Shown here: positions 56,710 to 58,445 of the stretch, in pieces
Layout: the number at the start of each line of letters is the position of its first letter
How positions within the stretch are numbered: the stretch's first letter is position 1
IMG/VR virus record: IMGVR_UViG_3300045988_137643
Coordinates: 1-64,000 of that record
From: a virus
Lineage: Duplodnaviria > Heunggongvirae > Uroviricota > Caudoviricetes
Length of the DNA stretch: 64,000 nucleotides
Direction: 5' to 3' (one strand)
Made by a program: the position numbers and the translations under genes
The notes under the pieces: model-generated
What the model was told of the DNA's origin: nothing
The model's database searches: none
Seen by the model: the letters and a program-made list of their open reading frames with translations, nothing else

Positions 56710-57813
56710 ATGAAAAATAGCTTTGACAGAGCACGCGCTGCGGAGAACACCTCAAAAGAGGCGATTGAGTATCTCGAAAGAGCATCTCAAATGCAGGCCG
56801 TTATGATCTCGCAGGTTAGCATTGATATGAGATTCTCGGACGCATTCATGTTATTCACTCGCTTATCTCTGCTGATAACCAGACGTCGGCCAGAGATCGC
56901 TGTTCATTGTATTTTGATACATGTTTTGCCGCACATTGCCGATGTAAAAGTAAGTGACATTAATAGGTTCATGGTGAACCAACTGGTCAACCCACTAATA
57001 CTGGATGGCAAAATTGTTATGGGCCGCCGCGTTTTCTCTCTGATGAAGCAGTTCCTTAGCTGGTGCGCCTTCCAGGGGATGATAGACGTGTCACCGTTAA
57101 ACGATATGTCACTAAACAAAGTTGCCGGTGGCGCAAAGCCCACACCTCGCGAGCGGAAGCTGACCGACGCAGAGGTATGGGTGTTCTGGAATATATGGGA
57201 CTACTTCAATGTGTGCGCTGGTACAAAATGGGCGGCCAGGCTGTGTCTTGTATCAGCAAGACGACCTGACGAAGTACTGCGGGCTAAAAAAAGTGAGTTC
57301 AATCTTAAGCGTGGGGTTTGGAATCAAGGCAAGAGAAACAAGTCAGCACGTGAGCATTCGCTGCCTTTAAGCACATTAATGCGCACATGCATTGAAGAGT
57401 TGTTCGAATACGGTAAAGACAGCCAGTGGCTCGTGCCTTCGAATAAAAAAATCGGGAAAGACCTTCCTATGTCTAAAGTGGCAATAGCCCAGGCATTACG
57501 TCGTATTCTGGAACGACCAGAACTGATGGAGCTTGAGCCATTTACACCCCGAGATTTGCGCCGTACTGCGCGTAGTTACTTCCCAGCATTAGGCATAAGC
57601 CAGGAGGTATCACGCAAAATCATGAACCACAGTCTTGAGGGGATAGATCGGGTCTACGACCGGCACGATTATATGGACGAGATGCGAGACGCCTTAGAAA
57701 GTTTCTCGACGTACATCGCATCAATCGTAGAGCAACCGGATTTAGACGAAATTGACCACAAATTCAAGGGAGATCGTCTATCAACAGAGCTTATTCGTGT
57801 AAATTTTTCATAG
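56710..57813 (+). CDS. int: tyrosine recombinase (integrase-family); N-terminal region divergent
   Basis: C-terminal catalytic motifs: box I Arg, PRDLRRT (HxxR position reads RxxR), MNHSL, RVYDRHDY with tyrosine nucleophile. Confidence 0.65.
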   Translation: MKNSFDRARAAENTSKEAIEYLERASQMQAVMISQVSIDMRFSDAFMLFTRLSLLITRRRPEIAVHCILIHVLPHIADVKVSDINRFMVNQLVNPLILDGKIVMGRRVFSLMKQFLSWCAFQGMIDVSPLNDMSLNKVAGGAKPTPRERKLTDAEVWVFWNIWDYFNVCAGTKWAARLCLVSARRPDEVLRAKKSEFNLKRGVWNQGKRNKSAREHSLPLSTLMRTCIEELFEYGKDSQWLVPSNKKIGKDLPMSKVAIAQALRRILERPELMELEPFTPRDLRRTARSYFPALGISQEVSRKIMNHSLEGIDRVYDRHDYMDEMRDALESFSTYIASIVEQPDLDEIDHKFKGDRLSTELIRVNFS

Positions 57814-58194
57814 AGACTTTATGGCCTCAACAACCTTTTGTGATGCGCCTTTCTCTTTACCGAATCGCTCGTTATATGCAGCAAGAACCTGTTTTTCGTC
57901 CTCGTTAAGAGGAGCGGTGCCTTCTTTGTATAAAAATGCTGCGAGTTCAGGTTGGCGTTCTTCCAGCACCATCATCATAAGACGACTTGGCTCAATACCC
58001 AGCGCCAGCGCCAGCGGACGAACCTTATCGATAGGCAAAGGAATTTTGCCACTTTTAATTAAAGAAAGGTTGTTGGCATTTTTATAACCAATAAGTCTGG
58101 CTATTTGGGCCTGACTCATAGGTGAGGATTCAATCAGCCCTGCGATAAAAGCAGCATAGCGACTTTCTATAAATTCAATCTTGTTGTCAGACAT
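57808..58194 (-). CDS. XRE-family HTH transcriptional repressor (candidate immunity repressor)
   Basis: HTH segment MSQAQIARLIGYKNANNLSLIKSG; divergent from 58446..58658; GGTAAG-TG-CTTACC palindrome in its upstream region. Confidence 0.7.
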   Translation of the reverse strand: MSDNKIEFIESRYAAFIAGLIESSPMSQAQIARLIGYKNANNLSLIKSGKIPLPIDKVRPLALALGIEPSRLMMMVLEERQPELAAFLYKEGTAPLNEDEKQVLAAYNERFGKEKGASQKVVEAIKSL

Positions 58195-58225
58195 TGTTAC
58201 AACCTTTGCGCGTTTAATTCTCTCT

Positions 58226-58239
58226 GGTAAGTGCTTACC
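58226..58239. promoter_or_regulatory. family B-related palindrome GGTAAG-TG-CTTACC in repressor upstream region
   Basis: 6-bp arms about 35 bp upstream of repressor start; further GGTAAG/CTTACC half-sites in 58270-58430. Confidence 0.55.
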
Positions 58240-58445
58240 GATATTACATCAAAGGTTAGGGTTGTAAAGCTATTATCATTTTTTTCGGCAGGCACTTGTA
58301 AGACCAAGCAAAGGTCCATGCATGGAGAAAAACTAGCCCAAAATAGGTAAGAAAATTAACTTGCATCTGATATAGATGTATTCAGTATTGATACAAATTT
58401 TAGTAGTATTCCTTACCATAGTATAAGTTAGAATGGATTGATTGA

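Follow-up and report, generated by a model that had tools for sequence, protein, structure and literature searches.

The operators of the P1 repressor C1 are asymmetric 17-mers, and in RK2 the ParB-family global repressor KorB has 12 palindromic operators and acts at promoters as well as at a distance. The stoperators of L5 are served by gp71, which according to PMC9283540 is monomeric and recognises an asymmetric sequence, and N15 and GIL01 have been cited for LexA-box induction of phage-plasmids (PMC11652158). For the SSU5-like group, which according to PMC9600943 includes pHCM2-type and pMT1 plasmids and has some members with antibiotic-resistance genes, a 2024 review of phage-plasmid regulation names no regulator, while it does so for VP882, GIL01 and N15; our literature search found no paper quoting the motif described below or assigning an operator in this group, and the words 'repressor', 'XRE' and 'operator' are absent from a 2026 phage-plasmid preprint. 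Here we analyse a stretch of 64,000 nucleotides (the window; positions 1 to 64,000 of IMG/VR virus record IMGVR_UViG_3300045988_137643) that encodes a 128-aa helix-turn-helix (HTH) protein next to a tyrosine recombinase. We put the probability at roughly 0.55 that this protein serves an SSU5-like phage-plasmid as its lysogeny (immunity) repressor, with dispersed operators and an SOS input. From the anatomy, conservation, co-variation and distribution of the locus and its motif, all documented here, and from published expression data, we infer DNA binding by the protein, repression through that binding and the route of induction.

The proposed arrangement shares with P1 that one repressor of a phage-plasmid would serve many units via operators scattered over ~100 kb, including one at the repressor's own gene, and that neither repressor has a self-cleaving domain. 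Unlike in P1, the 128-aa protein, which has no sequence relation to C1, would read 22-bp palindromes, and no Coi/Ant-like antirepressor was identified in the element. L5 has ~25-30 sites in short intergenic gaps throughout its genome plus a promoter site (PMC9283540, PMC6550527), much as proposed here, and D29, a lytic relative of L5 that lacks the repressor and keeps the sites (PMC5712189), is paralleled by SSU5; unlike the gp71 sites, those described here are symmetric and show no strand bias, and a possible block of elongation is suggested only indirectly, by larger expression steps at site junctions. With lambda CI/Cro and the 434 and P22 systems the locus has in common an XRE/434-type HTH repressor divergent from an early lytic operon, a dyad operator, presumptive negative autoregulation and, as a prediction, SOS-inducible lysogeny. 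It departs from them in that there is no S24 domain, the one full operator in the gap of this lineage is not shared with the rightward promoter and no Cro is recognisable. As in systems where a non-cleavable repressor is induced under LexA control (186 Tum, N15 AntC and the Gifsy and SPC32H antirepressors), a LexA box inside the element would supply the damage signal; unlike in the 186 Tum/N15 AntC type, the LexA-controlled gene would be a convergent tyrosine recombinase rather than a small antirepressor, and interference or antisense transcription is proposed. RK2 likewise has palindromes scattered across the genome of a plasmid, and it differs from the present case in that the 128-aa protein is a small XRE-type HTH protein, the ParB-like proteins of the element being possible binders all the same. 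By this comparison, the dispersed network appears to resemble P1 C1 operators or L5 stoperators more than a single lambda-type OR.

Judged by its sequence, the window belongs to an E. coli phage-plasmid of the SSU5-like group. It is ~97% identical to Escherichia phage Cyrano/pLF82, and megablast with positions 55000-62500 returned the Escherichia phages Cyrano (pLF82), CMS-2020a and PhiR41_1 at 94-97% identity as well as Salmonella phage SSU5, the latter at 75% and for part of the query only. In Cyrano, nearly all genes lie on one strand, with the repressor among the ~14 on the other, and the order runs from CYRAN_44 ('Integrase') via CYRAN_45 ('putative repressor') and the hypothetical CYRAN_46 to the CobT-like, CobS-like and DnaE genes. 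The succession of recombinase, repressor, gap, small open reading frame (ORF) and CobT recurred in 9/9 elements examined, from E. coli to Acinetobacter phage-plasmids, and in every lineage the repressor gene was opposite to the replication operon, even where the recombinase gene was placed differently. Homologues of the 128-aa protein were found by tblastn in 961 plasmids of the collection searched, nearly all ~100-115 kb in size and mostly non-mobilizable, from Klebsiella, Escherichia, Acinetobacter, Enterobacter, Yersinia (pMT1), Salmonella and other hosts. From SSU5 (JQ965645, 37279-53741), exactly int, repressor and small ORF are absent; a tRNA-Asn gene is followed there directly by a conserved hairpin and CobT. 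SSU5 keeps dispersed palindromes nonetheless, seven of them in 16.5 kb.

The candidate repressor gene occupies positions 57808-58194 on the minus strand, where the sequence-only reading had placed it, and it overlaps the integrase-family ORF (56710-57813, plus strand) tail to tail by 6 bp, as that reading had also noted. Its product is 98% identical to that of the 'putative repressor' gene CYRAN_45, to which it corresponds, and falls into PHROG 8, 'transcriptional regulator' (6.6e-12). An AlphaFold2 model (predicted local distance difference test, pLDDT, of 78 overall and 84-91 over residues 11-80) comprises eight helices and contains the five-helix HTH fold, for which Foldseek matched C.BclI, C.AhdI, HigA, SaPI Stl, SPC32H Rep, 434 repressor and SinR, with template-modelling scores of up to 0.78 relative to the target and all E-values above 1e-3. 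The label of an XRE-type HTH protein given to it previously is thus backed by predicted fold and PHROG assignment, the Pfam hits being sub-threshold. A search of NCBIfam returned no match, and a sequence-profile search against the PDB nothing significant, LexA (2kpj, E = 0.07) being the only entry. Pfam gave no Peptidase_S24 match, the helical C-terminal extension being predicted as three helices, and neither Pfam nor PHROG gave a match to the P1 C1 family. In the aligned enterobacterial set, hardly any variation is seen in the recognition helix GYKNxNNLSLIKSGK. The seven window ORFs scanned include no further repressor-like gene (the minus-strand cluster at 7511-9341 has a FljA-like protein, which is not a phage repressor), and the Cyrano annotation contains no CI-type repressor, i.e. 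an HTH fused to an S24 peptidase, with the regulators CYRAN_37, 62, 114 and 123 not individually excluded.

Between the repressor gene and a 70-aa ORF on the plus strand (58446-58658) lies a gap of 251 bp (58195-58445), and these coordinates, like the position of the sequence GGTAAG-TG-CTTACC at 58226-58239, agree with those given by the sequence-only reading. The hexamers also occur singly in the gap, as GGTAAG at 58346-58351 and CTTACC at 58412-58417. Taken from the window's sequence alone, the pattern does not stand out from chance: some hexamer occurs at least four times in 6.6% of all 251-bp windows, and perfect inverted repeats with 6-bp arms and a spacer of 0-10 bp amount to 1.35 per 251 bp. 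Its significance comes from comparative and matrix evidence. Alignment of the gaps of seven elements from Escherichia, Salmonella, Yersinia and Cronobacter revealed two conserved islands separated by ~110 unalignable bp. Island A consists of the palindrome and the predicted sigma-70 promoter of the repressor gene (58241-58268, minus strand; TTTACA at 58268-58263, a 16-nt spacer and TAATAT at 58246-58241), which is the sole promoter-like match in 57700-58800 and whose two hexamers are invariant in the seven elements and present in Klebsiella as well. The 12-bp core of the palindrome, GTAAGCACTTAC, is invariant in all seven; in Klebsiella the arrangement is kept and the corresponding sequence is GTAAGTACTTAC, which differs in one central base, although the repressors are only 64-70% identical to that of the window (57% in Klebsiella). 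The core of the operator-like palindrome (58222-58243 in its full length) begins 2 nt past the -10 hexamer, and its centre coincides with the predicted transcription start of the repressor gene. Because this is the usual position for negative autoregulation, it suggests that the repressor controls its own synthesis rather than sharing the operator with a Cro. When the window was ranked with a 14-bp core matrix built without the repressor-promoter copy, position 58226 came first in all 64 kb. With the 22-bp matrix described below, the copies at the repressor promoters of six other lineages scored 7.6-16.4 (12-16 in three, 7.6-7.7 in three).

The 'several additional half-sites' of the sequence-only reading exist as hexamers, of which one passes the half-site matrix: AATAGGTAAGA at 58342-58352 (plus strand), which fits the extended left arm of the dispersed motif with a score of 8.9, is weak evidence and is confined to the window/Cyrano lineage. 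The CTTACC at 58412-58417 fails the half-site matrix and is probably not a site, and neither hexamer is conserved in other lineages. Island B (58365-58410, plus strand; ATCTGATATAGATGTATTCAGTATTGATACAAATTTTAGTAGTATT, with the invariant runs AATACTACTA and TATCAATA) was recognised in the intergenic alignment upstream of the small ORF and is presumably where the small-ORF operon has its promoter or control site; the promoter scan gave no consensus sigma-70 match in it, and GTAAG is absent from it. Rfam gave no match in 56400-58900.

A search of the complete Cyrano sequence with the core, allowing one mismatch, yielded 12 places, and eight of the 11 imperfect ones lay in short intergenic gaps. 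The dispersed copies share a 22-bp palindromic consensus, gATAgGTAAGtaCTTACcTATc. A matrix trained on the window alone failed, the exact core occurring just once there; we therefore scanned the window with a matrix trained on the Cyrano sites, at a 22-bp threshold of 9. This gave 18 copies, compared to 0-1 in 20 shuffled sequences, and 13 of the 18 were outside ORFs of at least 100 aa (17.6% expected, P = 6e-7). Four genomes contained 25-31 copies each, compared to 0.2-0.8 in shuffles, and in Cyrano nearly all copies are intergenic. Copies between ORFs are found at 3760-3781 (score 12.5, between plus-strand ORFs), 11481-11502 (23.3), 20195-20216 (19.5), 23770-23791 (21.3), 30263-30284 (24.4) and 37175-37196 (27.0, again between plus-strand ORFs). 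Others mark the terminase/portal junction (16772-16793, 24.2), the vicinity of the 3' end of the portal gene (18279-18300, 26.9), the region upstream of the holin region (42058-42079, 21.0) and the boundary between the lysogen-expressed partition/toxin operon and a silent gene (46275-46296, 26.8). Further copies are at 49709-49730 (24.2), 50586-50607 (11.2, with only the left arm good), 53231-53252 (27.6) and 56164-56185 (16.7). In the replication region, one copy lies inside the CobT-like gene, ~0.8 kb in (59551-59572, 17.6), and another between the CobT-like and CobS-like genes (60878-60903, 12.6-15.2), with its Cyrano equivalent at 45262. Cronobacter, E. coli NT1F34 and Klebsiella each have a motif copy ~0.9 kb into their CobT gene.

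Two other readings of the palindromes themselves were tried and rejected. As RNA hairpins they would be expected to preserve pairing, yet there were 32 G-U-type and 28 A-C-type mismatches, and 18 compensatory changes compared to 19.6 expected in shuffles. As compact directional promoters they would be expected to carry a one-sided -10 signal, yet -10-like hexamers numbered 65 and 68 on the two sides, and the flanks were not conserved. Both arms are conserved, without strand asymmetry. Since it is the sequence of the arms that is conserved rather than their pairing, and since no one-sided -10 signal exists, the dispersed palindromes look like DNA sites for a symmetric dimer.

Comparison across more distant lineages suggests a link between the motif and the HTH protein. 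Plasmid pCAV1752-111 has nearly the same motif, with four of its 27 sites in the repressor gap. In the Acinetobacter plasmid CP107594, the motif is TATTAGTAAG-CG-CTTACTAATA, i.e. the same core with other flanks, and two weak copies lie upstream of the repressor. In a second Acinetobacter plasmid, CP096896, the core is changed from GTAAG to GTCAG: AATCAGTCAG-TA-CTGACTGATT is the form found throughout this genome, in 31 copies, and the plasmid's own repressor/small-ORF gap holds three strong ones. The pCAV and CP096896 gaps, with their three to four sites, are thereby unlike that of the window with its one. Immediately ahead of the recognition helix, the CP096896 repressor has Arg in place of the Asn of the GTAAG lineages; the segment reads K-N-A-N-N, with Asn39, in the enteric proteins and K-R-P-N-V in Acinetobacter. 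Replacement of an Asn-adenine by an Arg-guanine contact would be in keeping with the change from A:T to C:G in the core. Two further contigs with a CP096896-type helix (KRPNVLS) have GTCAG, and one with a CP107594-type helix (NQNM) has GTAAG; these contigs are relatives of the two Acinetobacter lineages and do not represent independent events. At the terminase/portal junction, a site is present in four lineages (Cyrano, pCAV and both Acinetobacter plasmids), each time in the lineage-specific sequence.

Expression values for the Cyrano genes in LF82 lysogens grown in lysogeny broth (LB) and in macrophages are available from the S1 Table of PMC9928086, whose authors treated CYRAN_45 as the putative master repressor and reported a 39-fold induction of Cyrano by ciprofloxacin. 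In LB, normalized counts were 95.8 for the repressor, 10-fold above the prophage median of 9.8, 49.5 for int, 20.3 for the small ORF and 7-8 for CobT/CobS (PMC9928086); the CobT, CobS and DnaE genes, divergent from the repressor gene, were at background in the lysogens. On the log2 scale of the same table, expression in LB lysogens and in macrophages at 1 h and 6 h was 6.6, 10.3 and 9.9 for the repressor, 5.6, 8.9 and 10.3 for int (CYRAN_44), 4.3, 8.7 and 10.8 for the small ORF (CYRAN_46), 2.9, 5.2 and 5.9 for the CobT-like gene (CYRAN_47) and 7.2, 11.3 and 12.2 for CYRAN_98, a gene behind a second LexA box (see below). In macrophages, int and CYRAN_98 rose in parallel, 26-fold and 32-fold, and the small ORF ~85-fold (PMC9928086). 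The joint rise of repressor and small-ORF transcripts is as expected for an inactivated repressor that represses itself. Expression steps were also related to the palindromes: among 94 adjacent same-strand gene pairs in macrophages at 6 h, the median step was 1.52 log2 with a site and 0.87 without (P = 0.025), and large steps occurred at 10 of 22 junctions with a site as opposed to 13 of 72 without. At Cyrano position 31295, the equivalent of the window copy at 46275-46296, expression drops 64-fold after the lysogen-expressed partition/toxin operon.

Convergent with the repressor gene is the tyrosine recombinase ('integrase') gene (56710-57813, plus strand; Pfam Phage_integrase, 39.7 bits with a cut-off of 27.1), and the overlap of the two is kept in enterobacterial lineages. 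Motif and conservation define a promoter with a LexA box ahead of it (56636-56682, plus strand): TTGATC, a 17-nt spacer and TAATAT (56659-56664) are followed by TACTGTTTACTTATACAGT, of which the CTGT-N8-ACAG box at 56666-56681 starts 1 nt past the -10 hexamer. Seven enterobacterial lineages (Escherichia, Salmonella, Yersinia, Cronobacter, Klebsiella, pCAV) have kept both the box and the promoter. CTGT-N8-ACAG occurs twice in the window, once at this promoter. We predict the recombinase promoter to be under LexA (SOS) control, as the window's only such promoter and one of two in Cyrano. A second perfect LexA box (TACTGTATGTGTATACAGTA) lies at Cyrano positions 89277-89292, before CYRAN_98, a stand-alone S24 peptidase gene (UmuD- or HumD-like), and is the only other good LexA box in Cyrano. 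A terminator-like hairpin at 58034-58050, inside the repressor gene, was considered as a barrier between int and repressor and dismissed, its nucleotide sequence not being conserved in other lineages. Upstream of the recombinase promoter, an inverted repeat of 13-7-13 (56579-56611; AATGATTCCATAC-CTACTAT-GTATGGAATCATT) is a candidate core site for the recombinase: the arms are kept from lineage to lineage and the 7-bp spacer varies, as in lox- or dif-like core sites. The 13-mer arm recurs exactly at 53793-53805 (plus strand) and at 62630-62642 (minus strand, in DnaE), and with one mismatch at 52781-52793; extra copies, extended as GATTCCATACATC, are found in Cyrano, in pCAV and even in SSU5, which has no recombinase.

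Put together, these features suggest the following mechanism. A dimer of the repressor would bind GGTAAG-YR-CTTACC, and the copy over the start point of its own promoter would let it limit its own synthesis. It would probably also bind the ~18 longer copies of gATAgGTAAGtaCTTACcTATc in short intergenic gaps of the window (~25 per genome) and thereby keep replication, structural and lysis units silent during plasmid life. Lacking a self-cleaving peptidase domain, such a repressor would be non-cleavable, and a DNA-damage signal would have to enter by another route. This could be the SOS-controlled promoter, which would drive the recombinase gene head-on into the 3' end of the repressor gene with no conserved terminator between them, such that upon LexA cleavage less repressor could be made, owing to convergent transcription or antisense RNA, and lytic growth could set in. 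We propose interference because a cleavage domain is absent from the repressor and just one other good LexA box exists in Cyrano. The most far-reaching version of this model, in which one small non-cleavable HTH repressor on ~25 intergenic palindromes forms a genome-wide insulator or roadblock network in SSU5-like phage-plasmids, including pHCM2 of Salmonella Typhi, pMT1 of Yersinia pestis and resistance-carrying Klebsiella and Acinetobacter elements, and in which induction needs neither cleavage nor an antirepressor and proceeds via interference from the LexA-controlled recombinase promoter, is speculative, and we regard it as improbable in this full form.

Several observations weigh against the proposed mechanism. 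Its Pfam HTH matches are below the curated cut-offs (HTH_19, 18.9 with 30.2 bits required; HTH_37, 16.4 with 27), and the copy at its promoter in the window fits only the 14-bp core, its 22-bp score of 7.6 being below the threshold of 9. The gap holds a single full site, and none adjoins the small ORF. The co-variation between helix and core amounts to one single specificity change. Elsewhere in the genome, sites have no fixed position relative to recognisable promoters and occur at upward as well as downward expression steps. In the RNA-seq values, which were copied by hand from the published table and stem from a library that may not be strand-specific, repressor mRNA falls just from log2 10.3 to 9.9 between 1 h and 6 h in macrophages while int rises, which lends at most weak support to convergent silencing. 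Finally, the element has other candidate DNA binders, namely two ParB-like proteins and CYRAN_37, 62, 114 and 123.

These binders lead to a competing explanation, in which the element has some other protein that reads the palindromes (a lytic activator, a Cro-like or a KorB/ParB-like global regulator) that also tunes the repressor promoter, the HTH protein still being a regulator with its own operators elsewhere. A palindrome is recognised by an activator at the late promoters of P1. The sites precede genes that are jointly switched on in macrophages (CYRAN_12, 34, 56, 60, 81), and the repressor-promoter copy is without the outer arms of the dispersed consensus, both of which would suit this explanation. 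Against it, sites lie at downward as well as upward steps and have no directional -10 signal, they cluster solely in the repressor gap (three in CP096896, four in pCAV), and one is centred on the repressor start point, the classic position for autoregulation. In addition, where the residue ahead of the recognition helix is Arg instead of Asn, the core has C:G instead of A:T, which fits the HTH protein as the reader. We consider this explanation unlikely. The HTH protein could instead be a local, self-regulated regulator, for instance of the recombinase gene and the small ORF, and no master repressor, in which case something else would silence the lytic genes in the plasmid state. In line with this, the lone full site is in its own promoter, its gene is always linked to the recombinase gene, and its expression is modest, ~10-fold over background, when that strain's Gally repressor reaches 47-fold. 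Yet the seven window ORFs scanned offer no other repressor-like gene and the Cyrano annotation no CI-type repressor (CYRAN_37, 62, 114 and 123 not being individually excluded), exactly this module is missing from SSU5, all lineages have the gene facing the replication operon even with the recombinase placed differently, and its site shares the core of the genome-wide motif and co-varies with it. A purely local role is accordingly rather unlikely.

The sequence-only reading had seen in the gap a resemblance to a CI/Cro-type switch. In a lambda-type bistable circuit of this kind, the small ORF would encode Cro, which would compete with the repressor for GGTAAG/CTTACC sites over 251 bp. The two genes are indeed divergent, the gap has one full site and two extra hexamers, and the rightward genes begin with the small ORF, whose transcript climbs strongly under stress. 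This architecture is not supported: the full site stands alone at the repressor promoter, ~200 bp from the small ORF, the extra hexamers are weak as half-sites and not conserved, only one of them passing the matrix, island B next to the small ORF is without GTAAG, and the small ORF has no HTH match and is predicted, at low confidence, to be mostly strands. We consider a CI/Cro switch distinctly improbable. That the palindrome is a functionless chance repeat could be argued from the chance levels given above (1.35 such repeats per 251 bp, and a hexamer present four times in 6.6% of windows). Against this stand its invariance across lineages whose repressors are 64-70% identical (with one central base off in Klebsiella, at 57%), its first rank in the window by the core matrix, its fixed position past the -10 hexamer and its co-variation in Acinetobacter, and on these comparative data pure chance is hardly credible. 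The suggestion of an immunity region has fared better: annotation and lysogen expression of CYRAN_45, the conserved gene order, the loss from SSU5 and the conserved palindrome make it very likely that the module serves lysogeny or immunity. The earlier reading had a real module and the right site with the wrong architecture, and it had missed the genome-wide palindrome family and the LexA box.

The genes to the right of the gap are conserved as well. The 70-aa ORF at 58446-58658, whose coordinates were correctly given before, is the first gene of the rightward operon and belongs to phrog_2627 (5.8e-41), a family without known function; homologues are present in all enterobacterial lineages, including one unannotated in Klebsiella. 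It has no HTH or other Pfam match, and its AlphaFold2 model, mostly strands, is unusable at a pLDDT of 52. There is no evidence for the small ORF being Cro. Between it and the CobT-like gene lies a conserved hairpin with a 12-bp stem (58671-58703, plus strand), which has two compensatory pairs and G-U variants over eight lineages including SSU5, and no U-tract. Across its Cyrano counterpart expression falls from log2 10.8 to 5.9, about 30-fold, and the hairpin may be an attenuator. The CobT-like VWA protein (58757-60865) has a long acidic, Ser/Asp/Glu-rich linker of low complexity (~residues 225-345), and the palindrome copy at 59551-59572 falls into its coding sequence at ~residues 265-272, near the 3' part of the acidic stretch.

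On the other side of the module, four tRNA genes (Asn, Tyr, Thr, Ser) are clustered at 54000-55001 of the window; Cyrano has three of them (no Tyr) and SSU5 only Asn at that place. The slot between tRNA genes and recombinase holds variable cargo, which is a 298-aa ORF in the window (55181-56077, minus strand; phrog_35492) and the 184-aa ORF CYRAN_43 in Cyrano, transcribed ~720-fold above background in lysogens. Further cargo is the FljA-like protein mentioned above (187 aa; 7823-8386, minus strand), which matches Pfam Flag1_repress (FljA, the repressor of phase-1 flagellin) at 4.4e-84 and could change host flagellin expression.

SSU5-like phage-plasmids are common in Enterobacteriaceae and Acinetobacter. 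For these elements, our analysis turns a 'putative repressor' into a testable model with a defined operator, ~25 predicted targets per element, a specificity residue (Asn to Arg with GTAAG to GTCAG) and an SOS entry point. If true, the model would explain immunity groups, the lytic growth of SSU5 and mobilisation by SOS-triggering antibiotics, and it would provide a handle for curing or inducing SSU5-like elements.

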